Origin: an uncultured bacterium
GTDB lineage: Bacteria; Patescibacteriota; JAHJAL01
NCBI GenBank assembly: GCA_938004065.1
Contig: CALKWM010000039.1
Coordinates: 65,313 to 129,312 of the forward strand
Direction: 5' to 3'
DNA length: 64,000 bases
Both the position numbers and the translations under genes were made by a program. The notes beneath the pieces were generated by a model that worked only from the letters and a program-made list of their open reading frames with translations, did not search any database and was not told the origin of the DNA. Positions within the stretch are counted from its first letter, which is position 1, and every line of letters starts with the position of its first letter. This document shows positions 5,102 to 44,499 of the stretch, one piece after another.

Positions 5102-5106
5102 AATTT

Positions 5107-6921
5107 TTAACTTTTTCTCTGCTCGTGTATCAACATATCAACCGCCTGCTCCATCGATCCGGCCTCGACAATCCGGCCATTGTTGACAAAAAATATCACG
5201 TCCGCCTTGGCGATAGTATTTAGCCGGTGAGCGATAATCACCCGTATCGTTTTTTTAGGTAATTTGTCCAATATCTCTTGTAATAATTGTTCGGTCATCG
5301 TATCGATATTGGCGGTGGCTTCATCCAAAATCAACAAATCAGGTTGACGCAAAACCACTTGGATAAAAGCTATTAACTGTTTCTGACCGTGGCTGACACT
5401 GTCATCCCCCGGTTTTATTTGCGTTTCCAATCCATCGTTGAACCGATCCAATAATTTTTTTAGTCCCGCTTGTCGCAATATCTCCATCAGTTTTTCCGGG
5501 GTGGTATCCTGGCACAAATTATTACCATAAACGATGTTCTCGCGTAAAGAGCCGGTAAATAAAAATGGTTCTTGTAAAATATATCCGATTTTCTGCGTCC
5601 GCTCCTCTGGTTTGTAGGATCGAATATCCCGACCGCCAAAATATATCGTTCCGTTCGTTGGATCATAAAGTCGGGCCATCAGAGAAGCGGTAGTTGTCTT
5701 CCCGCCACCGGTCGGACCGACAAAAGCGTACGTTTTACCTGCTTCTAAATTGAAATTGATATTGCTTAAAACTTCTTTGCCATCAGGATAAGCAAAACTG
5801 ACATTTTTGAAAGTAATCAAATTTTCGGTCGAAACACTTTTTACCCCGATGTTTTTTTCAATCAGTAAATTATTTTTTAGTTCCAAGATATTTACTATCC
5901 GATCCCAACCGGCCAAGGCCACTTGAAAACCGGCCCACAATGAAGCCATCTGCCTCAATGGTGTATAAAAAATATTTACGTAAGCCAAATAACTCACCAA
6001 CCAACCGATAGTAAATTGGCCATTTCCAATAAGATATAAACCCAACATCAAGACGCCAAATTGTCCCAAATGAGCCAACAATCCGTATGTCGGGATAAAA
6101 ATATTGTTGGCCATTCCGGCCAAGATGGCCGATTGATAGTTTTGTTTGTTGACGAGGTCAAACTGTTTTTGAAAATAATCCCGCCGATTATAGGCCGCAA
6201 TCACCTTGAAATTGTCCAAGCTTTCTTGAATCTCAGCACTCATTCCGCCCGTATTTTGTAAACTTAAAGCATTGCGATTTTTAACCCAAGGCGACACCAA
6301 TCTGGTAAAAATCAGTAAAAACAAAGTTGGTATAAGTGCTACCAAACCCATCAGTGGATTGATCACTAACAGCAGTATCGCCGCACCGATCATGATGAAA
6401 ATATTGCCGACAAACTGCATCAGGGTTTGGGAAAAAAATTGGTTCAATTTATCACTATCGTTGTTTATCCTGGATATCAAATCTCCGGCTTTATTTTGGT
6501 TAAAAAAAGCTATCGGCAAATCCTGCAATTTGGTGAAAATGGCGTTTCTAAGTTCATATAACGCTTTTTGTCCGACAGTTCCCATCTTGATAGTCTGCAG
6601 ATAATTGGCCAAAAAAGCCAAGATAAAAAGAACCAACAATATTGCCGAATAAACCAACACACCATCAAAAAGTTTTTGTGATATGAAGCGATCAACCGCT
6701 TGCCCGATCAACACCGGCGCCATCAAATTGAGAACCGAATTCAAAATTATCGCTACTCCCGCCCAGATCAAATCTCGTTGGCTGGATTTCAAAAAAAGCC
6801 ACATGCTTTTCCAGGATCCGTATATTGAGGATTTAGAAACCTTATTTTCCTGATTGTTTTTTTGATTAAGATCGTAATTCATAACTACTGGTACTTTGTT
6901 GTGATTGATATATTTGAGCAT
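5107..6921 (-). CDS. ABC transporter, fused permease/ATP-binding subunit (MsbA/multidrug-exporter type)
   Basis: Six-TM N-terminal domain, Walker A GPTGGGKTT, ABC signature VSHGQKQ, Walker B LLILDEATANID. Confidence 0.85.
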   Translation of the reverse strand: MLKYINHNKVPVVMNYDLNQKNNQENKVSKSSIYGSWKSMWLFLKSSQRDLIWAGVAIILNSVLNLMAPVLIGQAVDRFISQKLFDGVLVYSAILLVLFILAFLANYLQTIKMGTVGQKALYELRNAIFTKLQDLPIAFFNQNKAGDLISRINNDSDKLNQFFSQTLMQFVGNIFIMIGAAILLLVINPLMGLVALIPTLFLLIFTRLVSPWVKNRNALSLQNTGGMSAEIQESLDNFKVIAAYNRRDYFQKQFDLVNKQNYQSAILAGMANNIFIPTYGLLAHLGQFGVLMLGLYLIGNGQFTIGWLVSYLAYVNIFYTPLRQMASLWAGFQVALAGWDRIVNILELKNNLLIEKNIGVKSVSTENLITFKNVSFAYPDGKEVLSNINFNLEAGKTYAFVGPTGGGKTTTASLMARLYDPTNGTIYFGGRDIRSYKPEERTQKIGYILQEPFLFTGSLRENIVYGNNLCQDTTPEKLMEILRQAGLKKLLDRFNDGLETQIKPGDDSVSHGQKQLIAFIQVVLRQPDLLILDEATANIDTMTEQLLQEILDKLPKKTIRVIIAHRLNTIAKADVIFFVNNGRIVEAGSMEQAVDMLIHEQRKS

Positions 6922-8620
6922 ATTCCGGACAGGTGGACAGCAATTGTTCGTGCCGACCGCTGGCGATCATTTCCCCCTCCATTAACAAGACAATTTGCTC
7001 ATAATGCTCGATGGTGGATATCTTTTGCGTCACCGAAATCAAGGTGATATGCGGATAATTTTTTTGAATATTTTGGAGAATTTTTTGTTCGGTTTGGTTG
7101 TCCACTCGAGCAGTAAAATCGTCCAGCAACAATATTTTTGGATTGAGAGCCAATGCTCTAGCCAGCATGATGCGCTGTTTTTGGCCACCAGATAAACTGG
7201 TTCCTCTCTCAGAGATGATCGTTTCCATTTTATCCGGCAGAGAATCGATGAACTCATCCAATTCGGCGGTTTGAATAGCTTTAATCATTGCATCATCGTC
7301 GATTGTATCGCCAAATGAAATATTTTCGCGCAAACTTAAATTGAACAATACGCTATCCTGAAAAACCAGACCGATTTGACGGTGCAAGCTATTCTGTTCA
7401 TGTTCCGATACATCAATACCATCGAAAAGTATTTTACCAAAATCAGGTTTGATTAATCCAATCAAAAGATACACGAGTTGCGTTTTACCGGCCGCGGTCG
7501 GTCCGATAATAGCCGTTTTGCTACCGGCCGGGAAATCTATCGTTACTTTTTTTAGTACCGTTTTTGAACCATAAATTTTGCTCACCTGTTCCAATCTTAA
7601 ATCGCCCCGTAATCTGTTTTTATTGTTTCCGTTTTCGCAGGGTACAGGTTGGTTCAATATCTCATCGATGCGTTCATAAGAGGCGGTTGCCTGGGCGATC
7701 AAGTTGCTCATAAAACCAATAATAATTATCGGAAAAATTAATATTGATACATAGTTCATAAAAGCAGTAAAATCACCTAGAGACAATTGATCGGAAATAA
7801 CCAGCTTTCCACCCAGAGCCAGGATAATTAATATAGTCAAATTGGCCACCAGAGAAATAATCGGAATCATCGTGGCAAATAATTTCAGAATTTCCATCCC
7901 CAGATTTTTAGCTTCCAAATTGGCCGACAAAAATTTATAGTACTCCGTTTGCTGGGAATTAAGCACTCTGATCAAACTTGCTCCCAAAATGCTTTCGTTA
8001 ATAGTCTGATTGAGACGATCGAGGATCTCCCTGGCTTTGGTAAACAATGTTTTGATCCGGCCAAAAATGACCGCAAAAGTCAGTCCGATAATCGGCACGA
8101 CTGCCAACACCGCCAAAGCCAACCGCCAATTCATGTAAATCAAGATAGTACTAACACCCAATATCACAAACAAGGAAGAGACAATCGATACTATTGCTTG
8201 GCCAACGAACATTTTAATCGAATCGATGTCAGCCGTCAGATTGGTCAGCAATCTGGCAGTTGTTTTCTCTTGGATAAAGGCGAAATTTTGATACGAAATT
8301 CGTTCGATTAATTTTTGCCTCAAATCTCTGGCCACTCTCTCTGACGCGATAGTCTGGACTATACTTTGCAGATAAAACAGGACAAAAACTCCGATCGCTG
8401 TTATACCAAAATACCAGCCGGTTTGTCGCATATCAAATACGCCCGCGGTAAAATCATCAATTGCCACGGCGATTATTTTTGGCACTATCAGATTGAGCGC
8501 ATTACTCAACAACGCCAGTACAATTAACAAAACTATCCACCAGGCATACGGTTTAAGTAAATCAATCATTTTACTCCAGGAATTATTCCTGTTATTGGTT
8601 TTGATAGCTGTTTTTTTCAC
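6866..8620 (-). CDS. ABC transporter, fused permease/ATP-binding subunit (partner of 5107-6921)
   Basis: TM domain + Walker A GPTAAGKTQ + signature LSGGQKQRIMLARAL. It overlaps the downstream paralog by 56 bp, the typical heterodimeric exporter arrangement. Confidence 0.85.
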   Translation of the reverse strand: MKKTAIKTNNRNNSWSKMIDLLKPYAWWIVLLIVLALLSNALNLIVPKIIAVAIDDFTAGVFDMRQTGWYFGITAIGVFVLFYLQSIVQTIASERVARDLRQKLIERISYQNFAFIQEKTTARLLTNLTADIDSIKMFVGQAIVSIVSSLFVILGVSTILIYMNWRLALAVLAVVPIIGLTFAVIFGRIKTLFTKAREILDRLNQTINESILGASLIRVLNSQQTEYYKFLSANLEAKNLGMEILKLFATMIPIISLVANLTILIILALGGKLVISDQLSLGDFTAFMNYVSILIFPIIIIGFMSNLIAQATASYERIDEILNQPVPCENGNNKNRLRGDLRLEQVSKIYGSKTVLKKVTIDFPAGSKTAIIGPTAAGKTQLVYLLIGLIKPDFGKILFDGIDVSEHEQNSLHRQIGLVFQDSVLFNLSLRENISFGDTIDDDAMIKAIQTAELDEFIDSLPDKMETIISERGTSLSGGQKQRIMLARALALNPKILLLDDFTARVDNQTEQKILQNIQKNYPHITLISVTQKISTIEHYEQIVLLMEGEMIASGRHEQLLSTCPEYAQIYQSQQSTSSYELRS

Positions 8621-8899
8621 GATATTAACATTATAACCCCGTTTGGTCGCTAATGAATAATGAATAATTAAGAATTAATTGAGAAACAAAAATTAGGTAT
8701 AATTAAACCGTTAAACATTAATTAACAACAAAAACATCAAATATTAAAAATATTTTTTTAAAATAAATTTCATGCAAATAATATTTGATGCGATTTTCGG
8801 TATGAAATTATTTATTTATATTATTTTTTAAATTATTTATTATTGCATAGTGCCAATTATTTTCCTCATTTGTTATCCTTATTAATTACCAATTTTAAA

Positions 8900-9652
8900 A
8901 TGTCTCAATACTATCAAGCCAACCGAGCCAGAAATATTTATAACCCCAAAGATAAAACACCGTTCAAATTATCCCGCTCTAAAATCGACTTATTTGTCGA
9001 ATGCCCCCGCTGTTTTTACCTCGATCGTCGCCTGGGAGTGGGTCGCCCGCCGGGATTTCCTTTTAGCTTGAATTCCGCGGTGGACAAATTGCTCAAGCAG
9101 GAATTTGATATTCATCGCCGTCATCAAACTACTCATCCTTTGATCGAAAAATACGGTATTGATGCTCATCCGGTAGCACATGAACAACTGGAACAATGGC
9201 GGGAAAATTTTGTCGGGATTCAATACTTGCACCAGCCAACAAATCTGACAATAACCGGCGCAATCGATGATCTTTGGATCAATTCGGCAAATGAATACAT
9301 CGTAGTGGACTACAAATCAACCGCCAAACAAGAACAAATTACCGCTCTCAATCAAGACTGGCACACCGGCTATAAACGGCAGATGGAAATATATCAATGG
9401 CTGCTTCGTCAAAATGGTCTCAAAGTATCCGACATCGGCTATTTTGTCTATTGCAATGGTCGTACCGATCGGGAAGCTTTCGATGGCAAACTGGAGTTTG
9501 ACATTACCTTGATCGCTTATGAAGGCCACGATGCTTGGATAGAACAAGTGCTTAATGATATTTATGCCTGTCTGCAATCATCCGATATCCCGCCTGCCCA
9601 TCCGGATTGCGACTATTGTGCGTATGTTACCGCCAGGCAAAGTTATAAATGA
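8900..9652 (+). CDS. PD-(D/E)XK family nuclease with Cas4/RecB-like Cys cluster
   Basis: N-terminal CPRCFY and C-terminal HPDCDYCAY (CxxC...CxxC) flank a core with a VVDYKST motif (D...E/D-x-K). The start is probably ATG 8900 (MSQYYQ) rather than the track start at 8843. Confidence 0.55.
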   Translation: MSQYYQANRARNIYNPKDKTPFKLSRSKIDLFVECPRCFYLDRRLGVGRPPGFPFSLNSAVDKLLKQEFDIHRRHQTTHPLIEKYGIDAHPVAHEQLEQWRENFVGIQYLHQPTNLTITGAIDDLWINSANEYIVVDYKSTAKQEQITALNQDWHTGYKRQMEIYQWLLRQNGLKVSDIGYFVYCNGRTDREAFDGKLEFDITLIAYEGHDAWIEQVLNDIYACLQSSDIPPAHPDCDYCAYVTARQSYK

Positions 9653-9705
9653 TAAAATATCTGGTAGTTATTATTTTTATAACGGTTTAGCAAAATATCA
9701 CATCA

Positions 9706-10245
9706 ATGAGTAAATGGTATAACTATATTTTTTTGTTTTTTGGCTTGTTTGGTTTTGTAGTGTCGCTTACAATACTTTTTTTCGCCATGCGCGCCGTTAT
9801 GGATGTCGGTGGATATTGCGCTGAGGGTGGGGCATATCAGATTTCCGTTCACTGTCCGGAGGGTGTCGCGTATCTAACGCCACTTTCGATTTTTGGTCTA
9901 TTGATCTTTGGTGGCATGTATTTTTTCAACGTCGTCCCCGCCGCTTTCAATTTTGGTTACCTATTCTGGACTGCGTTATTTGGGTCGCTGGGATGGAATT
10001 TTCTCGATTACGCGGTTTTTCAATCCGATAATATCGAAATTGCTTGGCTAATCTGTGCCATTTTGTTTTTACTGATGGCTTTTGGTCCTTTTATCCTGCT
10101 GGTTTTGGTCGCTGACGATATGAAAAATTACCGGGTTGGTTTTGGCAAAAATTTATTTAGAAAAATTATCCTTTTTCTCTATCAAATCATGGCCATTGCT
10201 CTGGGTATCTGGGTCGGGGCATACGTTTTTACCCACCTTTCTTGA
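9706..10245 (+). CDS. Hypothetical polytopic membrane protein
   Basis: 179-aa ORF with 4-5 hydrophobic helices and coding-like composition. No recognisable motif. Confidence 0.4.
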   Translation: MSKWYNYIFLFFGLFGFVVSLTILFFAMRAVMDVGGYCAEGGAYQISVHCPEGVAYLTPLSIFGLLIFGGMYFFNVVPAAFNFGYLFWTALFGSLGWNFLDYAVFQSDNIEIAWLICAILFLLMAFGPFILLVLVADDMKNYRVGFGKNLFRKIILFLYQIMAIALGIWVGAYVFTHLS

Positions 10246-10312
10246 ATATTTGATTTTCTTTTTTTGTCGTCAATTCTCCAAATATTTTTTTAGAGATTTT
10301 TTTGCATAAAAA

Positions 10313-10352
10313 ATAGGTAATCTTGAAAAAATAATTACCTACTTTATTTTTT
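10313..10352 (+). terminator. Rho-independent terminator downstream of 9706-10245
   Basis: Stem ataggtaat/attacctac followed by ctttatttttt. Confidence 0.5.
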
Positions 10353-10354
10353 AT

Positions 10355-12889
10355 CTATATTAATTTTTTTATTAATTCCTTGAACCTTGCCGGCTGAAAT
10401 GGTTTGGTGATAATATCATCCATTCCGGCCTGATAACACTCATCCATTTCTTTCTGAAAAGAATGAGCGGTCTGGGCAACAATAATGTTTCTTTTCGATC
10501 CGGTTGTTTTTTCATATTCCCGAATTTTTTTGGTCGCCTCACAACCATCCATCTGTGGCATCTGGTAATCCATTAAAATTATGTCGTATGGATTTTTCAT
10601 AGCCAGATCCACTGCCTCTTGTCCATTCACCGCCAGATCAATCTGACTTAAACCCATCTTTTCCAGGACTTTTTTAACCAACTTTTGGTTTATCAAATTG
10701 TCTTCCGCCAACAAAATTCTCAAATTCATATCAGCAAATACCGCCTTCTCTTTACTGATTTTTTTGGGGGTTTCTTGTGATTTTTTACCAAATATTTCCC
10801 CCAGAACTTTTTTTAGTTGAATATAACTTATCGGTTTTGAGATAACGGAACAAAAAATATTTTTGTCACCATATTTTTTGCCGTCGGAAGAAAGCAGAAC
10901 TAGCGGTAAATCAGGTTCTATTTTTTTGATTTCTCTCGCCAGCTCCAATCCATCCATTTTTGGCATATGCATATCCAAAATAGCTAGATCCACATCATTG
11001 TACTTGTCTCTTTTGATACCATTAAGGTAATTCAAGGCCTCTGCGCCTGAAGCGGCGGCAAACGGTTTTACCTTTCTGGCCATCAGGTAGTTTGTCAAAC
11101 ATATCCGATTGGTCTCGACGTCGTCCACAATGAGGATTTTCTTTCCCTCCAATTGTGGTAAAACAGCCGACTCATAATTTGCTGATTTGTCTGATCTTGT
11201 GATCTTAATCGTAAAACTAAATGTAGAGCCATTGTTTTCTTCCGTCTCAACCCAGATTCTGCCACCCATTATTTCGACCAATCTTTTTGTGATAGATAGT
11301 CCCAGACCGGTGCCACCGTATTTTCGAGTCGTGGAACTATCGGCTTGCATAAATGGTTTAAACAATAAAAACAGCTTGTCTTCCGCGATGCCGATACCGG
11401 TATCTTTGACGGAAAAAAGCAAATCATCATCATTCTTTGTAACGCTTAAAATAATTTCCCCTCCACTTTTGGTAAATTTGGTTGCGTTTGACAACAAGTT
11501 CGTCAAAACTTGTCTCAATCTCAATCCATCAGCCCAAATAATTTTAGGGACATTTTCGTCAATGAAATAATTCAGTTCCAAAGTATTTTCATAAACCTTG
11601 GGAGAAACAATGTCAATCGCGCACTCCACGCACTCCCGAATATTTATTTTGGATTCATCGAGCTGGATATTGCCCGATTCTATTTTGGATAAATCCAAAA
11701 TATCATTGATTATTGCCAATAGCACATCGGCTGAACTGCTGATAGTATTGAGATATTCTCTTTGTTCGCTGTCTAAATTTGTGTCCGACAGCAAATCCGC
11801 CATTCCGATTATTCCATTCATTGGCGTCCTGATCTCGTGGCTCATATTGGCCAGAAAACTAGTTTTGGCTCGATTGGCGCATTCTGCTTTATCTTTGGCC
11901 TCGAGCAAGTCGCATTGATAAGCTTCAATCGATTTTATCATAAAATCGATATTTTCCGTCAGTCGTGATATTTCATCCCTGCTCTGCCCGATAGGCCTGG
12001 TATCCATTTTTTTTCGATGTGGCACTTGTGATATTTTTGTGTCCAGTTCTATCAAACGGGAAATAATTCTTGTGTTAATGAATTTTATCAACAAAAAACA
12101 AAATACTGACCCAAAGCATAGAAACATGAGGAAATTATACCTTATGCTATTTTTGCCTTGTTTGTAGATGTCTCGTGGCAAGACAACTTTTGTTGTAAAA
12201 ATTGCTTTCCCTTGCGGATCATAAATATTTTTATAACCGGCGATAGTATTGTCAGAAAGTTTGATAGCGTCATCACGAAGTGGCGCAACTATCGTAAGTG
12301 GCAATTCCATTTTTTCGGACAAGTCATTGATAAAATATTTATCAACGTACCTGCCAAATATCAATTTACCTTGCGGTGTGCCGGTTCTGTCTGATTTTAC
12401 AATTGGTTTTGTGCTTACCAAAATAATTCGTCCGTTCAAATCTATAAAACCGCCAAAAAATGACTCATGCGGATGATCTTTTTCGACAAATTTTATCAAT
12501 TCTTCCACCGACCCGTTGAACCTTTTTTCCTGAAAATCATATGAATTGGAATACACAACTCGGTGATCTTTATCCATAAAAACCATCACATTGACTTTAG
12601 TGTTGATATAATCGCTCTCATTGAGATAATTTGTCGAAAAATCTTCAAAATCTCCCCGAACAAACTTGCAACTATCATCCCAACAAGCCCAATCCTCTGT
12701 CGTTCGTTCCAGATCGTCAATTTCTTTATCAAAAAAACTTTTTATTCTACCCAAGTTTTTTTGCATCCTCGACTCTTCTATTTCCGCAAAACTGTTCAAA
12801 AAAATTACATTGGATATTAGATACAAAATCACTACCAAGACTATAAACAAAAACATAATTACAACAGTAGTCTTTGCTTGTAAATTCAC
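10355..12889 (-). CDS. Hybrid sensor histidine kinase with two receiver domains
   Basis: N-terminal TM + roughly 230-aa extracytoplasmic sensor + second TM. HisKA H-box [15 protein letters not shown]. HATPase [12 protein letters not shown]1 ([10 protein letters not shown]...DMHMPKMDG). REC2 ([13 protein letters not shown]...[10 protein letters not shown]). Confidence 0.88.
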
Positions 12890-34216: not shown

Positions 34217-35689
34217 TTACACCTCCATACTGTTTTTTTGTTGGATTTCATACAAATCCCACACCAACCATTCACAAATGGTTTTTGTATGAATGCAGAA
34301 GTTTTCATCGGGGATATGCATGTCTCCCTGTCTGATTTCTGAATTGTAAGCACATCCTCCTCCGCACATTCCGATAGCAAAACAATCGTGACACCTGTTC
34401 ATATTGAATGGCGATCGCTGGCTCCATTTTAGAAAAACAGGATCATTTTGAAAGTCAAAATTCTTGTTGAAAACAGTAGTCGGAAAGTTTTTTTTAGTAG
34501 TCACATAAGCTTGGCATGAACCAATTCTACCAATCGGATCCACCACAAATTGGTTTCCATAGCCCGCACAATCGACGAGATGCAGAGTCTTGTTGACAAA
34601 GGCTTTTGCTTTTCTCATTATTCTATCTTCGTAAATACCCAAAATCCGGCAACGTTTGAAACATTTGATCATCATTTCAGTTGCTCGATAACTGTAGTCT
34701 TTACCTAGTTGTAGTTTATCCGGTGTGTCAATTAGCAGATTGAATCCAAATCCTTTGATTTTGAGATCAGATATCATCCAATCAACAACCGATTCCAATA
34801 TGGGTAAGTTTTTTTCATTGATAGTACAAGAGATACCGACATTGACTTGATGCATTTTCAAAGTGTGATAGTTTTTGATTATTTCGTCAAAACTGCCCGA
34901 ACCATTGTGATATATTCTATTAAAATCGTGAACATCTTTTGGCCCGTCTATTGAAAATGAGACATTTATCAAATCCTTATTCATGACAATGCAGTCAATT
35001 ATCTCTTCGGGAAGATATGTACCATTGGTAATAAGTCTGATTTTTGTATCAGCGGACAGTACGCCACCAGTTTTCATCCGTTTTACTTCATTCACTATAC
35101 TGACAACCCCCCGGGTATTCAGTAGAGGCTCCCCTCCATAAAGAATAATCTCGGGATTTGATGTCGATCTATTGGTCGAATTGAGCTGGTCGGCAAATTT
35201 TCGCAGGGCCAGTTTTATGATCTCTTCAGTCATAAAAGTAAATTTATGACTGTTTGATAAACAATTTTCAATGTAGCAATATTTGCACGCCAGATTGCAT
35301 TTATCGGTCAGGAGAAGATTTACTATATTGATTACCGGTCGTTGAAGAAATTTATCGGCAATGGTATTTATTATCCGATTTTCCTCATAAGCATCAGACA
35401 CGATAAAGCCACTGTCGATTAGCAATGAAATATCGTTGCCGATTGTATTTTCAACTGAAATTAACCTGATTGATGAATCTGACAGAGTGTTGTAATATTT
35501 TTTTTCTAGGTAATATGTTTGATGGGTCAAACTATGATACAAACAAACAATATCGTTTTTAAAAAAAGCATGTACAAATTTGGAAAATCTTAGCGATTTT
35601 CCATACGTATTCATTGCTGACAATGACTGATCTTTGGTCGAAATTTTTATACCTTTTGACTTTTCCGTTATAAATGTGCTGTCTGACAT
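34217..35689 (-). CDS. Radical SAM / SPASM-domain peptide maturase
   Basis: CNLACKYCY (Cx3Cx2C) at about residue 120, preceded by a roughly 115-aa N-terminal domain (RRE-like position). C-terminal SPASM Cys clusters (CQAYVTT...CHDCFAIGMCGGGCAYNSE). Confidence 0.85.
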   Translation of the reverse strand: MSDSTFITEKSKGIKISTKDQSLSAMNTYGKSLRFSKFVHAFFKNDIVCLYHSLTHQTYYLEKKYYNTLSDSSIRLISVENTIGNDISLLIDSGFIVSDAYEENRIINTIADKFLQRPVINIVNLLLTDKCNLACKYCYIENCLSNSHKFTFMTEEIIKLALRKFADQLNSTNRSTSNPEIILYGGEPLLNTRGVVSIVNEVKRMKTGGVLSADTKIRLITNGTYLPEEIIDCIVMNKDLINVSFSIDGPKDVHDFNRIYHNGSGSFDEIIKNYHTLKMHQVNVGISCTINEKNLPILESVVDWMISDLKIKGFGFNLLIDTPDKLQLGKDYSYRATEMMIKCFKRCRILGIYEDRIMRKAKAFVNKTLHLVDCAGYGNQFVVDPIGRIGSCQAYVTTKKNFPTTVFNKNFDFQNDPVFLKWSQRSPFNMNRCHDCFAIGMCGGGCAYNSEIRQGDMHIPDENFCIHTKTICEWLVWDLYEIQQKNSMEV

Positions 35690-36070
35690 TTATTACTCCA
35701 CCCCCTTTAAAGTAATTTGACCAGTTTTATTATATTATATTGCAGACAAATTGTTTAGAATTTTGTTGTATAGGAAAAGCGCTCCCGTTCAATATAAACG
35801 AGGCGCTTTGTGAGCAAAAAGCTCGGCAAGTGGAGATGGCCGAGCCTATTTCGAACATATTGAATTATTAGTTAACAGACATTTACCGGCGTTCCAAAAA
35901 TGGGGCGAGTTTATCTTATTGATAAAAAAAGAATGGGAGAATAAGGTATTATCACAAGATTGGCAGGCAAATTTGTCATTCAAATATTAGCGATAAATAA
36001 ATAAGAAGGCCGTGTTTCGAACATTGCATTTGAGATATAATATAAATGTATTATGTTATAACTTTAGTAA

Positions 36071-36394
36071 ATGATTGAATTATTTAATACAGCCGTAAGA
36101 TCACCAGTAATAATAACGTTAACTGTCTTATATTTTCTGACTTCGTCTATTACTACGTTTGATATCAGAATGACTCAAGGGAAATGTGATGGGACCATTC
36201 CCTCCAATGAACAAATGCCACCAAGATGGGTTGCTTTAATTTACTGGATTGATTGGCTGCTTATCATTGCTATATTTTTGCTTAACTGGAAATATGCAGT
36301 ATTAGTTTTTATCGTCAAGTTTATTCTTCAGGTTTTACCAGTTTTGGAGATAGCGGGAAATATTTTAATGTCTCCTTTTAAACGAAAAGGTTAA
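36071..36394 (+). CDS. Island-encoded small membrane protein (hypothetical)
   Basis: 107 aa, 3 hydrophobic helices. Confidence 0.35.
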   Translation: MIELFNTAVRSPVIITLTVLYFLTSSITTFDIRMTQGKCDGTIPSNEQMPPRWVALIYWIDWLLIIAIFLLNWKYAVLVFIVKFILQVLPVLEIAGNILMSPFKRKG

Positions 36395-36400
36395 CGACTT

Positions 36401-36874
36401 ATGACCGAATTAACAAAATTACAGAAATTAATTATTCTACTGTATGCAGGTAATGCATATAGTGCTTATCGAGATAATAGTTTAACTGAATTATTTTCAA
36501 AATCGAAAGCATATTTAGACAAGTATTCCAATCAACCTATGAAACAATATGGCGGCGGTTGTGCGCTTTATATAATGAAACAAGTATTAGCAGGGGAAAT
36601 AAAATATAACGAAAAAGAAATCAGCGATGAACTTAAAAAGGTTTGGTTGTCTATAGCCATAGGATTTGAACTTACAAGCACATCACTTGAATTACCAAAA
36701 TATTTGCTGCCAATCGTAAGACTATTTGCCGCACCACATATTAAAGATAAGGGTTTTTCAGAATGGGTAGCAAAATACAACCAAGAATTATCTGTTTATA
36801 TCAGTTTGATAAATGGCCTTGAAAATATCCAAAAAAATTGCGATGTCCATCAAACTGTTTTTGATAGAAATTAA
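36401..36874 (+). CDS. Island-encoded hypothetical protein
   Basis: 157-aa ORF 6 bp after the previous gene. No motif. Confidence 0.35.
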   Translation: MTELTKLQKLIILLYAGNAYSAYRDNSLTELFSKSKAYLDKYSNQPMKQYGGGCALYIMKQVLAGEIKYNEKEISDELKKVWLSIAIGFELTSTSLELPKYLLPIVRLFAAPHIKDKGFSEWVAKYNQELSVYISLINGLENIQKNCDVHQTVFDRN

Positions 36875-36892
36875 TATATTAATAATAAGTCT

Positions 36893-37385
36893 ATGAGTGA
36901 AGATAACGAACAAAAGGAAAATGACGATTTGCTTGAGTTGGTTAAAACAGCCAAAGATATCGATATTAAAGAAAAGTCTGACAAAAATGATAAGGGATTT
37001 GAAGATAATAAAGGAAATTGGGTCAAATTCAATGAGAAAGAAAAAAGCAGAACTTTCACGGAAAATTAAACCTATAGGCCGGCAGGCGTTATATTCATTG
37101 ATAAGCTGTGATGCAAAAAGCGTGATTGAGAGGCTGAAAGAATTAAGTCAAAGCAAGAATGAAAATGTTGCTTTGGGTGCTTGTAAGGTACTAATTAACA
37201 AGATTTTACCCGATATTAGCAGTATTGGCTTGCTTGATTTACAGTTGGTTGAGCATCAAAAAGGGAATGAAATAATTGATATAGCGGTTGATAGACTAAA
37301 AAAGACGAGTGATGCTTATATTATTGATGAAAATGGCTATTTTAAAAACGAAAAAGATGCTGTCGCTTTTTTAGAAAATAATTAA
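36893..37385 (+). CDS. Island-encoded hypothetical protein, possibly frameshifted at an A-run
   Basis: ATG 36893 opens a 59-aa frame (MSEDNEQKEND...) that ends at 37069. A second frame (MRKKKAELSRK... to 37385) overlaps from about 37036. The junction is at gaaaaaag (about 37040). Confidence 0.3.
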
Positions 37386-37395
37386 GATATATTTT

Positions 37396-37740
37396 ATGGA
37401 ATTAGAAAAAGCTGAAAATATTGTTCGCATTTGGGGTATTTTTCTCGAACATTCTTTTGGCAAATTAAATTTGCTTTTTATGGCTAAAATACCAGACTTC
37501 TTTTTGCCTTTTCCAAAAGAAACAATTGAAGTAGCTGTTAATACTATTGCCGAAATGCATCATAATGCTGGCAATACTGAGGCGGTAAATTCTCTACAGA
37601 GTACTTTGCCATATCTTATTGGTTTTATTGATAATGAACAAGCTATTATAAATGCAGCGAAATTGTTTAAAGACGACAAATATCGGGATAAAATTTTGCC
37701 GGCTTTGAAAAGAAATCAGGATAATTGGATAAATATATAG
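37396..37740 (+). CDS. Island-encoded hypothetical protein
   Basis: 114-aa ORF. Confidence 0.35.
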   Translation: MELEKAENIVRIWGIFLEHSFGKLNLLFMAKIPDFFLPFPKETIEVAVNTIAEMHHNAGNTEAVNSLQSTLPYLIGFIDNEQAIINAAKLFKDDKYRDKILPALKRNQDNWINI

Positions 37741-37776
37741 AAATAATAAAACCAATTTTGCATAATAAGTGTAATT

Positions 37777-38172
37777 ATGAACACTACAAAATATGAAAAT
37801 CTTAAAATGAAGGAAAGATATTTGCCAATATCAGTTAGTGAAATAATGCTGATTGTAGCCGGCGCAATTGTCTTTCTATTACATAATTTAAGTGAATACA
37901 GACTAATATTCATTATTGCAGTTATAGGATTGTATTGGCTTAAAATTAGACTGATTGAAACTAAAATTCAAAATAAAAAACAAGAGATTTATAATGTCTT
38001 CTATGATAAATGTAAACCTGTTGCAATGAAGGTTATAGAGGGCAAAACAAGAATTGCCAGAAAGCCACTCGAGTATGAAATGGACCAATTAGAATTTGAC
38101 AGAAAATGCTTAGTGGATAAGTTTGTAGTTATAAATCTTATTCTAATGATTTTAATTCAATTATTTTTTTAA
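37777..38172 (+). CDS. Island-encoded membrane protein (hypothetical)
   Basis: 131 aa with two TM helices. Confidence 0.35.
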   Translation: MNTTKYENLKMKERYLPISVSEIMLIVAGAIVFLLHNLSEYRLIFIIAVIGLYWLKIRLIETKIQNKKQEIYNVFYDKCKPVAMKVIEGKTRIARKPLEYEMDQLEFDRKCLVDKFVVINLILMILIQLFF

Positions 38173-38250
38173 TTTAATTTGTCAACACCACACTTAACAG
38201 ATATGAACGACGGGGAGTATAAATAAATTATTGTTATTAAGAGGTAAGCA

Positions 38251-38844
38251 ATGGAAAGAATTATACTAATTTGTTTTATTAGTTTACTACTCTTTACTAG
38301 TTTGGGATGTCAAAATCAAACCGCAAATGATAATGATGCAATAAATTCATCTGAAACCGTTTTACAAAAACAAGAAGAGAAAAGCATCTCACAAGAAGAG
38401 CCAATTATTACAACAGAAGAAAAAGAAAATTTATCTGATAGTGAAATAATAACTTCAATAGTAAAAAAAATTGATGATTTTGATATTATGATTGTTGACA
38501 CAAATGGTGAATTTTACATTGACTCACCTGTTCCACCCTATGAAATAATTATTAATTCAACTCCAGAACAGATAATAGATTGTTTTGATGCAAAAAATAA
38601 GTTGGTTGAATTAATGAAAGGACTTTATAAAAATGATAAAGTTGGTAATAAAATTTCCAGAGTAAAATTTTCTGCGTGGGGTCAATTAAGAGCCAGTCTA
38701 GGAAGTGATGACAGTAATGCACTTGATAGCGATCCTGGACCGTCTGTGTATTGGGAGAATACTTTGAAATTTAAACCATATGAAGACGAGGATGGACCAT
38801 TGGAACAGCGGACTTGGGGCGTAAGTATTAATGGGTGTAAATAA
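38251..38844 (+). CDS. Island-encoded lipoprotein (hypothetical)
   Basis: Signal peptide + lipobox SLGC. 197 aa. Confidence 0.4.
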   Translation: MERIILICFISLLLFTSLGCQNQTANDNDAINSSETVLQKQEEKSISQEEPIITTEEKENLSDSEIITSIVKKIDDFDIMIVDTNGEFYIDSPVPPYEIIINSTPEQIIDCFDAKNKLVELMKGLYKNDKVGNKISRVKFSAWGQLRASLGSDDSNALDSDPGPSVYWENTLKFKPYEDEDGPLEQRTWGVSINGCK

Positions 38845-38877
38845 TATTATTTATCATTTTTTTACTAAATTATAATT

Positions 38878-39576
38878 ATGAAACAAGCGAAATTATTGCT
38901 ATTCTCCTTTCTGATGATTGTTTTGGTTGGGACGGGTATCACCTATGCGGTAACATCAAATCTACCACAGGAGGAGGCATCAGAGACTGATTATGTGTAT
39001 CGTTTTTGGTCCGATGTATTTCACGGCCATTTCTTTACCATAGACTATGACGAAGCCACAAAGGTTAAAAACACTGACTCTAATTGGAATTATGAAAAAG
39101 TGGCGTTTAGTGCTTATAAAACACAGCAAAGCGATACTATACCTCTATATAGGTTTTGGTCTGATGTGTTCAAGGGTCATTTTTATACTGCTGATGAGAG
39201 CGAGTATTTGAAAGTTAAAAATACTGATAGTAATTGGAAATATGAATGGATTGCTTATTATGTTTACCCACTAACTTACAGCGGTCCGGTAGAGACTGAA
39301 ACTGTATTTCGTTTTTGGAGTCCGGTATTTTTGCATCACTTCTATACTTCAGATGAAAATGAAATGAACAAAGTTAAAAACACTGATAGTAACTGGACTT
39401 ATGAAGGACCGGCATTTAAGGTGCCTAAACAAGAATTTACTAGTATTAGTTGCGATAAACGATGCGATGAGATGATTAGTTGTCAGGAAGCATATTGGTA
39501 TCTTAATGATGTGGGTTGTGGCGACAAAGACCAAGATAACGATGGCATACCTTGCGAAGAGATTTGTGGAGGATAG
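38878..39576 (+). CDS. Secreted protein with three roughly 45-aa repeats and a C-terminal Excalibur calcium-binding domain
   Basis: Signal peptide. Three copies of YRFWSDVFxGHFYTxDxxExxKVKNTDSNWxYE. C-terminal CDKRCDEMISCQEAYWYLNDVGCGDKDQDNDGIPCEEIC (Excalibur Cys pattern with DxDxDG loop). Confidence 0.55.
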   Translation: MKQAKLLLFSFLMIVLVGTGITYAVTSNLPQEEASETDYVYRFWSDVFHGHFFTIDYDEATKVKNTDSNWNYEKVAFSAYKTQQSDTIPLYRFWSDVFKGHFYTADESEYLKVKNTDSNWKYEWIAYYVYPLTYSGPVETETVFRFWSPVFLHHFYTSDENEMNKVKNTDSNWTYEGPAFKVPKQEFTSISCDKRCDEMISCQEAYWYLNDVGCGDKDQDNDGIPCEEICGG

Positions 39577-39657
39577 ATATTTATAAATACAGTAAAAGAA
39601 TATTTAACCATCTCAAATGCGAGGTGGTTAAATTATAATTGATACATACATTATTAT

Positions 39658-41253
39658 TTGGCTTTAATTTCAATGAAAAACACAAAATATATCATCTATG
39701 CCCGCCGGTCCTCTGATGAAAAATCAGGCAATCAGGCGAAGTCTATTCCTGACCAGATTGATGCTTGCCTTGATTTAGCATATAGATTGGGAATAAAAAT
39801 CAATAAAGATAAGGATATTTATTCGGAAAGTAAATCAGCAAAGACCTATGACAACCGGCCAATATTCAACAAAATTATTCATATGATTGAGAAGGGAGTT
39901 GTTGAGGGCATAATATCTTGGCATCCGGATAGGTTGTCGAGAAATATGTTTGAAGCTGGGAAAATAATAGATTTATTGGATGTTGGGAAAATAAAAGATT
40001 TAAAATTTTGTACTCACCATTTCGAAAATACTGCATCCGGAAAGATGATGTTGGGTATTATGTTTGCTATTTCCAAAGAGTATAGCGATAAATTGAGTGA
40101 GAATATCAGCAGGGGCTATCGGACTAATTTTGAGCAGGGTATATCCGGCGGTAAGCCAAAATGGGGCTATAAAATTGACGAGAGTGGCTATTATGTACCG
40201 GACGAGCCGAACTATAGCATTATTAAAAAAGCTTGGGAAATGAGGCTTGAGGGGGTTACAGTAAATAAAATATTTGAATGGCTGAAGACTATGGATTGCC
40301 ATCGGTATTTTAAGAACAATAGAGATAACAAAAAATATATCACCAAAACAGCACTTGGATATATTTTCAAAGACGCTTTGTATTATGGGATTTTGCGACG
40401 GAAGGATAAATTTGTGGAATTGAAAAAAATATACGATTTTCAGCCAATGATAAACCAAGCAGAATTTAATATGGTCCAGAAAATCAATCCACGAGCACCA
40501 AAGGTATATACCAAATTAGAACTACCATTTCGGGATAACATCGTAAAATGCGAATGCGGAAAGTATTGCTTTCCAACTATTGAGACCGGCCGGAAAGATA
40601 GGTATTTATCTTTATACTGTAGGGATAGAATGAAATGCAAATCAGGAAAGTATCGAACAAGGGCAAAGAAGATTGTGGATGCAATATCTGATGATTTGGA
40701 GAACAAATTTGGTCCGAAGAAAAAGAACTTTGAAATAGTAAAGGAGAGGTTATTAAAAGCTATTGAGGCAAAACAAAATGATGACACAAAAAAAATAGCT
40801 TATTTGAATAGAAAAATAAGCGTTAAAAAGAAAGAATACGATAGCTTGGTACTTAATTGTTTGAAAAAGGAAAAGGACTTGAGCAAGGAAGAAAGAAAGG
40901 TTTACGAGAGGGAAAAGATGAAACTAACAAATGAGATTGCCGGTTACGAAGAAGAACGAGACACTATCAAGAAAAATGATGTACTGAAAGACTTTGACTA
41001 TGAATTTTTTTCGAACTTTTTGAAGAACATAAGCCAGTACTGGAAAAAGGCGAATTATAAACAAAAACACATAATTGCAAAAATTATGTTTTCGAACATA
41101 GTGGTTAGTGGCGGAAAAGTCTTTTATTTACAATACAATCCGTTTATAGCGGACCTTTTTGCTCTGGGAAGTGGAGATGGCCGGAGTCGAACCGGCGTCC
41201 AAAATTGTTTAACATCAATTTCTACATGTTTAGTTAAGTTTAAAATTTTTTAG
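39658..41253 (+). CDS. Large serine recombinase (site-specific integrase)
   Basis: N-terminal resolvase catalytic domain (YARRSSDEK...S...Q). Recombinase domain. Zinc-ribbon CECGKYCFP...CRDRMKC. C-terminal coiled coil. The 3' end runs through the right direct repeat. Confidence 0.85.
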   Translation: MALISMKNTKYIIYARRSSDEKSGNQAKSIPDQIDACLDLAYRLGIKINKDKDIYSESKSAKTYDNRPIFNKIIHMIEKGVVEGIISWHPDRLSRNMFEAGKIIDLLDVGKIKDLKFCTHHFENTASGKMMLGIMFAISKEYSDKLSENISRGYRTNFEQGISGGKPKWGYKIDESGYYVPDEPNYSIIKKAWEMRLEGVTVNKIFEWLKTMDCHRYFKNNRDNKKYITKTALGYIFKDALYYGILRRKDKFVELKKIYDFQPMINQAEFNMVQKINPRAPKVYTKLELPFRDNIVKCECGKYCFPTIETGRKDRYLSLYCRDRMKCKSGKYRTRAKKIVDAISDDLENKFGPKKKNFEIVKERLLKAIEAKQNDDTKKIAYLNRKISVKKKEYDSLVLNCLKKEKDLSKEERKVYEREKMKLTNEIAGYEEERDTIKKNDVLKDFDYEFFSNFLKNISQYWKKANYKQKHIIAKIMFSNIVVSGGKVFYLQYNPFIADLFALGSGDGRSRTGVQNCLTSISTCLVKFKIF

Positions 41254-41740
41254 TTTAAATTGATTTAATAACCAACAAAAGACCAATTTAAACGACATAT
41301 GTTACTTGGATTTAGTCAGATATGTAAGCCAACTAAATTGCGTCATAGTAAGTTTTGGCACCCAAGATCTGGTCGCTATGCCGATCAGGTTGGATGGCTG
41401 CCTAATTATTTAGGCAACGGCAGTAGCCATAGAAAATTGAGGAGTAAAAAGACTCTTCAATTTAGCTACAAAAGTGTTTGCATTTACATGCATGTAATTT
41501 GTAAATTTAAGTGGAGCAAATTACAACCCACCACATGCTTATGATATTAAAGATCAATTCTGTCGAAACCAAATCATCCCCTAAATTTGCGCGAGCAAAT
41601 TTCTTTGCATAACTCACGAAAACTTAGCGAGTGACTTAGAAAATCAAAATGCAAAACTCAAAGATCAAAATTACAACTAATAAATAAAAATTAATATAAA
41701 TTTAAAGAATAATTAATATGATTAATTCTATACTTTTAAT

Positions 41741-42094
41741 ATGGATAAAAATGAGTTAAAAATTCGAAGTTACATGTATTCAATCAGAATAATTAAATTT
41801 GTTTCGAAATTACCAAATAGTAGAGTATTTTGGATAGTTTCAGATCAATTATTGCGTTCTGCTACTTCAATCGGAGCCAACATATTCGAAGCGAAATCAT
41901 CTAGTTCAAAAAGAGACTTTATCAAATTCTTTGAGATCTCACTCAAATCTGCAAATGAAACCAAATATTGGTTAGGACTCCTAAGGGATAGTACAAATAT
42001 CAACAAAACAGAAATAAAAATATTACTTGGAGAGGTCAACGAAATTTCAAATATGCTTGGTGCAAGTTTACTTACTCTGAAAAATAAAAAATAA
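41741..42094 (+). CDS. Four-helix-bundle protein (TIGR02436; so-called 23S rRNA intervening-sequence protein family)
   Basis: SIGANIFEAKSSSSKRDFIKFFEISLKSANETKYWL matches the family signature SIGANIAEG...S..DF..FL.IA.GS..E. Confidence 0.6.
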   Translation: MDKNELKIRSYMYSIRIIKFVSKLPNSRVFWIVSDQLLRSATSIGANIFEAKSSSSKRDFIKFFEISLKSANETKYWLGLLRDSTNINKTEIKILLGEVNEISNMLGASLLTLKNKK

Positions 42095-42150: not shown

Positions 42151-42624
42151 TTAACTTCTCCCAAACTTCCTCCTCACTTCCCGATCAATCTGCCGTTTCT
42201 TGATCGTCTCGCGTTTATCAAACTTCTTTTTCCCCCGACCGATCCCGATTTCCACCTTGACCAATTTTTTGTTCTTAATGTAAAGAGATAGGGGAACCAG
42301 CGTCAAACCTTTTTCTTTCACCTTTCCGGTAAGTTTATTTAATTCCGATTTTTTAACCAATAACTTTCGCGATCTGGTTGGGTCATAATCTTTGCCGGTG
42401 TAGTTTTTAAATCTGTTGATATTGGCTCCCACCAACCACAATTCACCACTGATTATTTTGGCGTAAGCTTCTTTGATGCTAACTTTGCCTTCACGGATAC
42501 TTTTAACTTCGTATCCCTTCAATGCAATGCCTGCCTCCAGTGAGTCGAGGATTTCATAGTCAAATCTGGCTTTTTTGTTTTTTGCGATTACTTTACCCAC
42601 AACAAAATAGTATAATAAAATCAA
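42151..42624 (-). CDS. smpB: SsrA-binding protein
   Basis: IAKNKKARFDYEILDSLEAGIALKGYEVKSIR...TGKDYDPTRSRKLL is canonical SmpB. Confidence 0.9.
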   Translation of the reverse strand: MILLYYFVVGKVIAKNKKARFDYEILDSLEAGIALKGYEVKSIREGKVSIKEAYAKIISGELWLVGANINRFKNYTGKDYDPTRSRKLLVKKSELNKLTGKVKEKGLTLVPLSLYIKNKKLVKVEIGIGRGKKKFDKRETIKKRQIDREVRRKFGRS

Positions 42625-43890: not shown

Positions 43891-44499
43891 TTACGGGGCA
43901 TTAAATATGCCATTGGCAATATTTATCTGCCCCACAAAAAACTCCTGGTTTCTTTTTATATCTGTAAACCCGGACTTATGGAACTCAATCCAATAAGTAC
44001 CGGGTTCCATGTTTTCAACATGGAAATCGCCGTTGGATCCCGTAGTACCGGAGTACTTCAGGGTTCCGCCCTCACGGTCATAGACCTTGAGGTCCACTCC
44101 CGTGAGCAGAACAAGGGATCCTGAAGAGGCAAGATCTTTTGCCGAAGCATCGATCTCATATGCCACGAAATTTCCGTGGCATTTTCCCGATGCGATCGGC
44201 CCGAATTCATTCGGGTCGGTTACATAGGGAGGCGTAGGTGTTGGATCCGTAGTCGGCGGCGTCGGGATCGCCGTTGGATCGACAACCGGAGGTGTGGTCG
44301 GTGTCGCCGTCGGATTTACGACCGGCACCGTAGCCGTCGGGGCTGGGAGGTCTGGGACCACTCCACCGCCTCCTCCACCACCGCAACCGGCGGTCAAAAA
44401 TACTCCCAGGATTAGGATCCCGAGGAGGTTAATACAAAAAAGGCAATTAAGATGTTTTTTCATCTTCATTACCTCCTTTCTTTGTTTTTTAGGGTACAC
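43891..44499 (-). CDS. Lipoprotein with Pro/Thr-rich linker and carboxypeptidase-regulatory-like beta-sandwich domain
   Basis: Lipobox LTAGCGGGGGGG. PTATVPVVNPTATPTTPP linker. C-terminal YDREGGTLKYSGTTGSNGDFHVENMEPGTYWIEFHKSGF. Confidence 0.45.
   Translation of the reverse strand: MYPKKQRKEVMKMKKHLNCLFCINLLGILILGVFLTAGCGGGGGGGVVPDLPAPTATVPVVNPTATPTTPPVVDPTAIPTPPTTDPTPTPPYVTDPNEFGPIASGKCHGNFVAYEIDASAKDLASSGSLVLLTGVDLKVYDREGGTLKYSGTTGSNGDFHVENMEPGTYWIEFHKSGFTDIKRNQEFFVGQINIANGIFNAP

Follow-up and report, generated by a model that had tools for sequence, protein, structure and literature searches.

What kind of element occupies the 5.3 kb enclosed by two copies of a 15-bp direct repeat in the genome of an uncultured Patescibacteriota bacterium (lineage JAHJAL01), and how was it inserted there? 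The question is raised by a stretch of 64,000 nucleotides of contig CALKWM010000039.1 (assembly GCA_938004065.1, positions 65,313 to 129,312 of the forward strand), here called the window and numbered from its first letter. We consider, with a probability of about 0.8, that this region is an integrative element of 5,341 bp which its own large serine recombinase (LSR) inserted at the 3' end of ssrA, the gene of the transfer-messenger RNA (tmRNA), and that attP, the attachment (att) site of the element, is located inside the LSR gene. The features concerned are, from left to right:

35771 to 35810, minus strand: displaced intrinsic terminator of ssrA (hairpin and U-run), in the chromosomal (B) arm of attL.
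35828 to 35842: attL core, left copy of the repeat, a displaced duplicate of the last 15 nt of ssrA (exact match).
35843 to 35990, plus strand: detached 3' segment of the LSR gene, 48 codons and a stop, AYFEHIELLVNRHLPAFQKWGEFILLIKKEWENKVLSQDWQANLSFKY (AYFEHIELL...ANLSFKY, then the stop).
35851 to 35856: T-loop-like motif TCGAAC in the left (P') arm, beginning 5 bp further out than its counterpart in ssrA, at nt 24 counted from the repeat start.
36008 to 36024: second copy of the motif, GGCCGTGTTTCGAACAT, lying between the stop of the detached segment, which it closely follows, and the first cargo open reading frame (ORF).
39673 to 41253, plus strand: LSR, integrated form, 526 aa from the ATG retained by gene callers, or 531 aa from a TTG at 39658.
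41169 to 41183: attR core, right copy of the repeat, functional 3' end of ssrA.
41169 to 41581, minus strand: ssrA (tmRNA), the integration target, intact (ARAGORN 41171 to 41581; Rfam RF00023).
41187 to 41192: TCGAAC, complement of the tmRNA T-loop, in the attB-type arm, beginning at nt 19 from the repeat start.
42151 to 42624, minus strand: smpB (Pfam SmpB annotation on an identical contig), conserved in the closest related locus and marking the chromosomal side.

The 15-mer AAGTGGAGATGGCCG is present in exactly two copies in the window, at 35828-35842 and 41169-41183 on the same strand, and no third copy is found in the 64 kb when up to 2 mismatches are allowed. The chance expectation is 0.06 matches and none of 100 dinucleotide shuffles contained two copies. 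The exact count and the shuffles agree that the repeat is real and non-random, as had been claimed in a preliminary description made from the sequence alone. The element is composed of positions 35843 to 41168 and of one copy of the repeat.

The gene ssrA is complete on the right side of the element. It matches the family RF00023 over model positions 1-374 of 374 (142.4 bits, E-value 9e-56), with the predicted tag peptide ANTFVAKLKSLFTPQFSMATAVA. The gene smpB, which is the usual upstream neighbour of ssrA, is located nearby. On the minus strand, the 15-mer consists of the last 3 nt of the T-stem, followed by the acceptor strand (7 nt), the discriminator A and the trinucleotide CTT. The repeat had been recognised earlier as the T-arm and acceptor 3' strand of a tRNA-like gene, and ARAGORN and Rfam identify this gene as the tmRNA; the accompanying statement that no intact tRNA is present and that the right copy is a remnant was wrong, since the tmRNA gene near smpB is full-length and the right copy forms its 3' terminus. 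On the left side, the minus-strand RNA of positions 35765-35830 folds at -24 kcal/mol (z = -5.4; none of 200 shuffles is as stable) into a stem followed by UUUU. This hairpin is the original terminator of ssrA, now separated from its gene by the 5.3 kb of the island. The gene itself remains intact because the element brings an identical copy of its last 15 nt. This is the arrangement classically left when an element integrates site-specifically at a tDNA and restores its target, which supports the earlier view of an island integrated between att-type direct repeats.

The LSR gene is convergent with ssrA and reads into it. As stated in the preliminary description, the reading frame runs through the right repeat and ends in flanking DNA: the ORF stops at 41253, 70 nt past the repeat, and its last 22 codons past the repeat are the complement of ssrA. 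The protein contains the Resolvase domain PF00239 (1.1e-20, 74.6 bits) and the Recombinase domain PF07508 (26.7 bits for a cutoff of 21.1), matches the integrase family phrog_95 (6e-55) and gives no score with the Pfam domain PF13408. The alignment of 26 homologues reveals that the residues Tyr14, Arg16, Ser18, Asp20, Gln26, Arg92 and Arg95 are invariant, as are Cys304 and Cys321, and that Cys298 and Cys300 are nearly invariant. The AlphaFold2 model (mean predicted local distance difference test, pLDDT, of 83) displays beta strands between positions 291 and 330 and a long coiled-coil hairpin, with long helices at 350-398 and 405-434. The top Foldseek matches of this model are the integrases of SPbeta, phiC31, Bxb1 and LI, with E-values down to 8e-19, and the alignments with the SPbeta and phiC31 integrases are full-length (8e-19 to 4e-13). 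The model thus shows a predicted full serine-integrase fold, including a zinc-ribbon domain (ZD) with an embedded coiled-coil hairpin. The comparison with phage integrases that had been suggested gives a kinship of fold and a distant sequence: the identity is 20-28% with any phage or plasmid recombinase of the local collections, and about 26% at best with the phage LSRs of INPHARED. In NCBIfam, only weak matches to XisF and CcrB were obtained (35 bits for CcrB, whose cutoff is 900). None of the eight cargo ORFs encodes a second Resolvase domain.

Homologues of this LSR originate almost entirely from metagenome-assembled genomes of the candidate phyla radiation (CPR, or Patescibacteria), and their C-termini resemble the translated reverse complement of tRNA 3' ends. 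The species-representative genomes contain 554 relatives, and the loci examined are those of the best 79 of these together with the loci L001 and L002, that is 81 in total. In 68 of the 81 loci, the stop of the LSR ORF falls within a convergent tRNA or tmRNA gene (66 loci) or next to one (2 loci). The two genes overlap mostly by 12, 21 or 57 nt, lengths that correspond to a single frame fixed with respect to the RNA 3' end. The targets are tRNA-Lys(ctt) in 24 loci, tRNA-Leu in 13 (five anticodons), tRNA-Met and tRNA-Gly(gcc) in 8 each, the tmRNA in 5, tRNA-Pro in 4 and tRNA-Gln in 3; tRNA-Ala, tRNA-Ile and tRNA-His are each represented by one locus. In many loci, an upstream direct repeat starts at the RNA 3' terminus, and the islands so defined measure 2.6-11.3 kb. 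Some cores measure only 5-10 bp and an exact-repeat search misses several attL sites, so that a mapping guided by the extension peptides described below was used; in L014, L042, L045 and L068, the exact-repeat search picks older outer repeats.

The identical LSR protein is found on six contigs with the same neighbourhood in all. The closest different relative (P0002, 73% identity, assembly GCA_016294905.1, locus L002) likewise converges on ssrA beside smpB. The boundaries proposed in the preliminary description hold in this relative: the homology between the window and L002 begins exactly at the repeat (35829 corresponds to position 3479 of L002), and the left chromosomal flank and most of the cargo differ. 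The two loci share about 200 bp at the left end (the detached segment and the second motif), an ORF of 58 aa, a gene encoding a DUF5648 protein that adjoins the recombinase in L002 too, the LSR and smpB. The other cargo genes and the left flanks are unrelated, with a radical SAM enzyme in the window and an HhH-GPD glycosylase in L002, and L002 carries a gene for an S24 (LexA/CI-like) peptidase. Read from sequence comparison, this pattern is probably that of a mobile element with conserved ends and variable cargo.

The organisation of the left end reveals how the LSR gene is split. When the two ends of the element are joined, as in a circle or in a tandem copy, the LSR frame remains open for 49 codons past the repeat (48 residues and a stop). 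The circle form of the LSR has 552 aa and ends in ...ANLSFKY, against 526 aa for the integrated form. The detached segment of the window has no in-frame start codon upstream in attL, and it shares 49% identity (E-value 5e-14) and the ending ANLSFKY before the stop with its counterpart in L002. Joining the ends in L016 (tmRNA) and L005 (tRNA-Ala) adds 49-50 codons, and these extensions are homologous. With the extension peptides as queries, tblastn detects the segment upstream and on the same strand in 27 loci, including L002. For each of the 25 junctions, the longest k-mer common to both ends is in frame and gives an extension of 37-50 codons (in 2 of the 25, an out-of-frame k-mer is equally long), and this k-mer starts at the RNA 3' terminus or within a few nt of it. 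The in-frame continuity spans at least 9 independent lineages. An ab initio joining of the ends yields more recurrent extension families of 37-48 codons, at tRNA-Leu, -Met, -Gly and -Pro targets, and a profile search of the protein database detects at least 10 further attL-type fusions of an extension peptide to an unrelated upstream sequence. Within subfamilies, the extensions are homologous and their stop is conserved after an aromatic residue. The substitutions are distributed as 145/80/379 over the three codon positions, with 296 synonymous against 176 non-synonymous codon differences, and as 78/72/159 in a second group of extensions; these distributions point to purifying selection. The pair formed by the window and L002 taken alone displays no excess at third codon positions in the detached segment. 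From the in-frame continuity, the homology, the third-position substitutions and the lack of an own start codon, the detached segment appears to be a genuine and selected coding continuation of the recombinase.

The att sites display a second regularity. In the arm formed by the RNA gene, the complement of the T-loop (TCGAAC or TTGAAC) is located at nt 19 from the RNA 3' end, whereas the corresponding motif of the island left arm is located at nt 24. When nt 17-26 of the tRNA are compared with the island left arm in 22 non-redundant loci, the identity is 0.64 at an offset of +5, with at least 60% in 18 of the 22, and it ranges from 0.17 to 0.37 at all other offsets between -6 and +12. The ZD motif of serine integrases has been placed at positions 16-24 of attP half-sites and 11-19 of attB half-sites, which is a 5-bp shift (Rutherford et al. 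2013, PMC3783163). On the side of the RNA gene, the offset of the left arm matches this published attP/attB signature. TCGAAC is then a putative ZD-binding motif, and the domain would read the universal T-loop sequence. The conserved start of the extensions (HF[E/Q/K]H, FEH, LEH or HFQ) is explained by the translation of this T-loop-like DNA motif. The repeats of the related ssrA and tRNA islands intersect in the sequence TGGAG of the acceptor strand, and the geometry of the ZD motif places the central dinucleotide in GGAG(A), in agreement with this intersection. The crossover dinucleotide is thus probably included in TGGAG, on the acceptor-stem strand.

What had been described as several degenerate att-like sites can be resolved into two different objects, one being the attP-type arm of the island with its T-loop-like motif shifted by 5 bp, and the other the second motif at 36008-36024. 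The latter had been regarded as a further partial copy of the repeat; it is a conserved motif, present also in L002 (3655-3675). Its interpretation as a plain decayed att copy was rejected, as its position is conserved and it co-varies with the arm motif in other islands. Equivalent second motifs are located at about position 429 of locus L016 and about position 1640 of locus L007; in the window, L002, L016 and L007 the distance from the left end is 165-215 bp, and the motif follows the arm motif of its own island in the forms TTCGAAC, TTCAAAC or TTCCAAC. It is possibly an accessory or operator site.

Between the repeats, gene callers detect eight small ORFs on the same strand in addition to the recombinase, where seven had been counted before:

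36071 to 36394, plus strand: 107 aa, cargo ORF 1, membrane-like by eye, without match in Pfam, PHROGs or PADLOC.
36401 to 36874, plus strand: 157 aa, cargo ORF 2, without recognisable domain.
36893 to 37069, plus strand: small acidic protein of 58 aa, 49% identity with L002 3722-3889, no family match.
37032 to 37385, plus strand: 117 aa as called on an identical contig, overlapped by a mechanical ORF of 162 aa (36897-37385), no family match.
37396 to 37740, plus strand: 114 aa, without recognisable domain.
37777 to 38172, plus strand: 131 aa, membrane-like by eye.
38251 to 38844, plus strand: 197 aa, N-terminus resembling that of a lipoprotein (…LFTSLGC), its only PHROG matches being weak and to families of unknown function.
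38878 to 39576, plus strand: secreted repeat protein with DUF5648 repeats (PF18885, 8e-29) and a C-terminal Excalibur domain (PF05901, 3e-5).

Only the last of these proteins contains recognisable domains, and NCBIfam gave nothing interpretable on the cargo beyond DUF5648 and Excalibur. The searches against defence and phage profiles that had been proposed returned no defence system in PADLOC for the nine island proteins and, in PHROGs, cargo matches restricted to families of unknown function. No gene for phage structure, packaging, lysis or replication was detected by PHROGs in the 5.3-kb element, and no transfer, replication or phage gene is detectable among the eight cargo ORFs. On this ground, the element resembles a minimal integrative island that needs DNA uptake or a helper for its transfer between cells; as a guess, the circle is taken up by natural competence or travels with the help of another element. 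The 58-aa acidic protein may, speculatively, be a candidate accessory or directionality factor. A scan of the island for promoter and terminator consensus sequences gave counts that are not above those of shuffles.

Related islands carry other genes. In the cargo regions of L016 (1075-6596), L007 (4106-5917), L004 (5517-8633) and L005 (6273-7409), HsdM/HsdS-like proteins (type I restriction-modification), a KAP-like P-loop NTPase, a caspase-like protein of 1038 aa and a SEC-C-motif protein were recognised by eye only. In the complete genome of Ca. Nanosynbacter sp. TM7-008 (NZ_CP157587.1, L041), a 7.56-kb island (3992-11548) displays the same architecture at tRNA-Leu(gag), with an in-frame extension of 47 codons, TKATTFEHICSIAEWLF...DYKY. 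At the tRNA-Gly(gcc) of Saccharibacteria (L068, L069, L071, L073, L076 and L078), the analysis of joined ends places attL about 2.6 kb from the tRNA; such elements would be reduced to the recombinase gene and about 1 kb, a minimal "integrase-only" form, and the longer outer repeats of L068 and L069 suggest older tandem copies. Detached segments or repeats in tandem are observed in L008 (351-500 and 1279-1422), L040 (2954-3106 and 3870-4003), L020 (507 and 2131) and L014 (5854 and 5930), and indicate successive integrations (accretion) at the same tRNA gene. In front of one detached segment of L040 stands what is left of a recombinase 3' end, so that the chromosome contains an attP-like junction.

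Concerning the target gene, CCA is not encoded by the window ssrA; the ssrA genes of the window and L002 end in CTT/TTT instead. The predicted tmRNA tags are unusually long (23-29 residues) in the window (41171-41581, minus strand), L002 (11512-11933), L004 (11485-11900) and L016 (8794-9199), and the Rfam alignment contains an insertion of 42 nt in the tag region. Between ssrA and smpB, on the opposite strand (41741-42094, plus), the window contains a gene for a four-helix bundle (PF05635 23S_rRNA_IVP / TIGR02436, weakly Avd-like), and no gene occupies the equivalent position in L002. The radical SAM/SPASM peptide maturase located directly to the left of the island (34217-35689, minus strand) belongs to the chromosomal flank and not to the island; its best model is the maturase of the FibroRumin system (268 bits, below the cutoff of 400). 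Further to the right, a GC content of 0.54 at 43891-44499 (minus strand), in a genome at about 35%, is due to the Pro/Thr-rich linker of a lipoprotein whose lipobox is followed by a run of Gly.

Several results weigh against the reading of an active element with a split recombinase, and part of them also feed its rivals. The search for an empty site, advised in the preliminary description, was performed and found none: the 6 of 6 contigs with the identical recombinase are occupied, and the 6 of 6 contigs that contain the flanking radical SAM protein carry the island as well. The circular junction of the element was not found either. A scan of metagenomes with the bare 15-mer, a pattern which is too unspecific when used alone, gave at least 120 matches, and among the matches listed none has the attB, attP, attL or attR flanks of the element. 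The junctions expected are the following:

attB (empty site): GAGCAAAAAGCTCGGC-AAGTGGAGATGGCCG-GAGTCGAACCGGCGTC
attP (circle): GACCTTTTTGCTCTGGG-AAGTGGAGATGGCCG-AGCCTATTTCGAACATATTG

As neither form was found, mobility is only deduced from the anatomy. No recombination directionality factor was identified. In the opposite half-sites (the left arms of attB and attP), no mirror motif is recognisable by eye, and the Saccharibacteria subgroup inserted at tRNA-Lys has no obvious shifted motif. The presence of the island in every contig of the organism, together with the loss of the native C-terminus in the integrated recombinase, would fit a fixed relic which the truncated enzyme can no longer excise, all the more as excision by archaeal "suicidal" integrases is believed to depend on an intact copy supplied from outside (PMC8371274). 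We regard such a relic as unlikely: the repeats are identical at 15 of 15 positions, neither the LSR ORF nor the detached segment is disrupted, L002 carries other cargo between these conserved ends, which indicates a recent turnover at the ssrA site, and the tandem remnants at other loci are traces of repeated arrivals.

The extension itself can be contested. The element could be real and the detached segment not be part of the LSR, its conservation being due to constraints on the DNA of the attP arm or to a separate small gene, while the LSR simply ends at any stop of the flank. The first residues of the extension (HF[E/Q/K]H, FEH, LEH) are indeed the translation of a motif constrained at the DNA level, and McMurdie et al. 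(PMC3146451) judged the ssrA-encoded tails of a comparable recombinase, DsiB, non-functional and its stop codon "unclear". A profile search of the protein database detected no contiguous protein made of LSR and extension; in the AlphaFold2 model of the circle form, the body is confident and the extension is helical at low confidence (pLDDT 30-62); and the extensions of the window and L002 are only weakly similar to those of other subfamilies. Nevertheless, the conservation spans 40-50 codons for a half-site of about 25 bp, its end is a conserved stop preceded by an aromatic residue, the substitutions accumulate at third codon positions, every junction, across at least 9 independent lineages, continues the LSR frame, and the segment of the window lacks a start codon of its own, all of which makes a segment foreign to the LSR improbable. 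Still less probable is a decayed prophage at ssrA whose small ORFs would be the leftovers of a phage genome. This gene is a classical prophage site (PMC4383910), the LSR matches phrog_95, a few relatives occur in viral contigs of IMG/VR and L002 carries its S24 peptidase gene; against this stand a cargo without match to any phage family of known function, only 11 relatives in 2.9 million viral contigs of IMG/VR compared with 554 in species-representative genomes, the low identity with the phage LSRs of INPHARED (about 26% or less) and a family of uniformly small size (2.6-11.3 kb) with intact ends and LSRs and extensions that appear to be under purifying selection, which is unlike decay.

Under the reading of a self-inserted element, we infer that the window LSR recombines attP with attB. 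The enzyme would recognise the acceptor and T-arm of the RNA gene and exchange the strands in the acceptor-stem strand. With attP inside the LSR gene, the full-length protein of 552 aa would be produced only from the excised circle or from a tandem array; on an incoming circle this enzyme would be competent for integration, and integration would then alter or disable it. Integration would replace the last 48 residues of the LSR by a tail of 22 residues encoded by the complement of ssrA, and this C-terminal swap could be a built-in switch that changes activity, direction or stability after integration. These steps are deduced from the anatomy and from about 40 related islands, apart from the change of the enzyme on integration, which is a hypothesis. 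A broader generalisation is offered more tentatively, at somewhat less than even odds: a large clade of serine integrases, mostly from CPR bacteria, might use the T-loop as ZD motif, hop between targets by this means and keep attP in its own gene, with the swap as a directionality or one-shot switch and the second motif as an accessory or operator site.

Insertion of serine integrases at tRNA or tmRNA genes was not known according to a reference work on genomic islands (PMC4383910). The TIGER study of 2020 (PMC7192596) found 14 of 297 serine-integrase elements at such genes, and described them as unreported before and in need of proof. A literature search for serine recombinases of CPR bacteria inserted at tRNA genes turned up no relevant paper. 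The closest precedent is given by the ssrA islands of Dehalococcoides (McMurdie et al. 2011, PMC3146451), with DsiB, a CcrB-like serine recombinase of 540 aa whose 3' end always overlaps att and whose gene, as its authors suggested, is possibly complete only on the circle. In both cases, the target is the 3' end of the single-copy tmRNA gene and this end is found directly repeated; the gene of a serine recombinase of about 540 aa lies against ssrA, overlaps att and has its stop codon outside the island; and islands accumulate in tandem. The window element differs by its much smaller size, its CPR host, which belongs to another phylum, and the absence of a DsiA partner and of a RecF, ParB, Mom or polymerase-like module. 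The Dehalococcoides repeat measures 20 bp with an insertion in the T-loop, whereas that of the window measures 15 bp and ends in the T-stem, with a crossover that would lie in the acceptor stem. In addition, the relatives of the window LSR target many tRNA genes and not ssrA alone, and their extension is conserved and apparently selected, whereas only divergent tails have been reported for DsiB, which was compared here from its published description. The island of the window is thus another case of a serine recombinase at ssrA, and the family behind it is largely undescribed.

Integrases that split their own gene on integration have otherwise been described as exclusive to archaea (PMC8371274), and they are tyrosine enzymes. 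As in the "suicidal" integrases of SSV1, pTN3 and pT26-2, attP is located in the gene, which is partitioned at a tRNA gene and intact only on the free element. The window enzyme is a serine recombinase of a bacterial host and falls outside the tyrosine SSV/pTN3/pT26-2 clade, in which the split cuts off the catalytic domain; here only the last 37-50 residues are detached (48 in the window), the catalytic and DNA-binding domains remain intact and a short tail encoded by the RNA gene is gained. With the phage serine integrases (Listeria A118/LI, phiC31, Bxb1 and SPbeta), the window LSR shares the domain series, the fold, a short core identity and, in one arm, the outward 5-bp shift of the ZD motif in attP relative to attB. 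It is distinguished from them by an identity of about 26% or less, the tRNA/tmRNA target, attP inside the gene and the absence of a phage genome. The islands of the Islander class also have a tDNA and its displaced 3' fragment at their ends, a restored target and an integrase beside the tDNA, but this integrase is a tyrosine recombinase, which the window element lacks; its chemistry is that of serine enzymes and the logic of its att sites is different. SCCmec, mobilised by CcrAB, is a cassette neither phage nor conjugative that is inserted by large serine recombinases at the 3' end of a housekeeping gene between direct repeats of about 15 bp. The style of insertion is alike (a comparison also made in PMC3146451), but the CcrB match is weak and the window has a single recombinase instead of a CcrA/CcrB pair, in a terminal position and overlapping att, with an RNA gene as target.

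Hundreds of relatives place serine integrases at genes of at least 10 tRNA species (15 anticodons) and at the tmRNA gene, with a clear logic of att sites. The in-frame continuity and the signs of purifying selection support a bacterial, serine-type counterpart of the self-splitting integrases, and turn the aside made in 2011 on dsiB of Dehalococcoides into a general mechanism that can be tested. If the tentative generalisation is true, self-splitting integrases would for the first time be known from bacteria and among serine enzymes, and the C-terminal switch would replace or supplement a separate directionality factor. Since the T-loop motif is universal, the enzymes are attractive for studying how serine integrases are re-targeted. 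For the CPR bacteria, from which few mobile elements are known and for which no genetic tools exist, a recombinase that is compact and whose tRNA target can be predicted could serve as a tool for integration.

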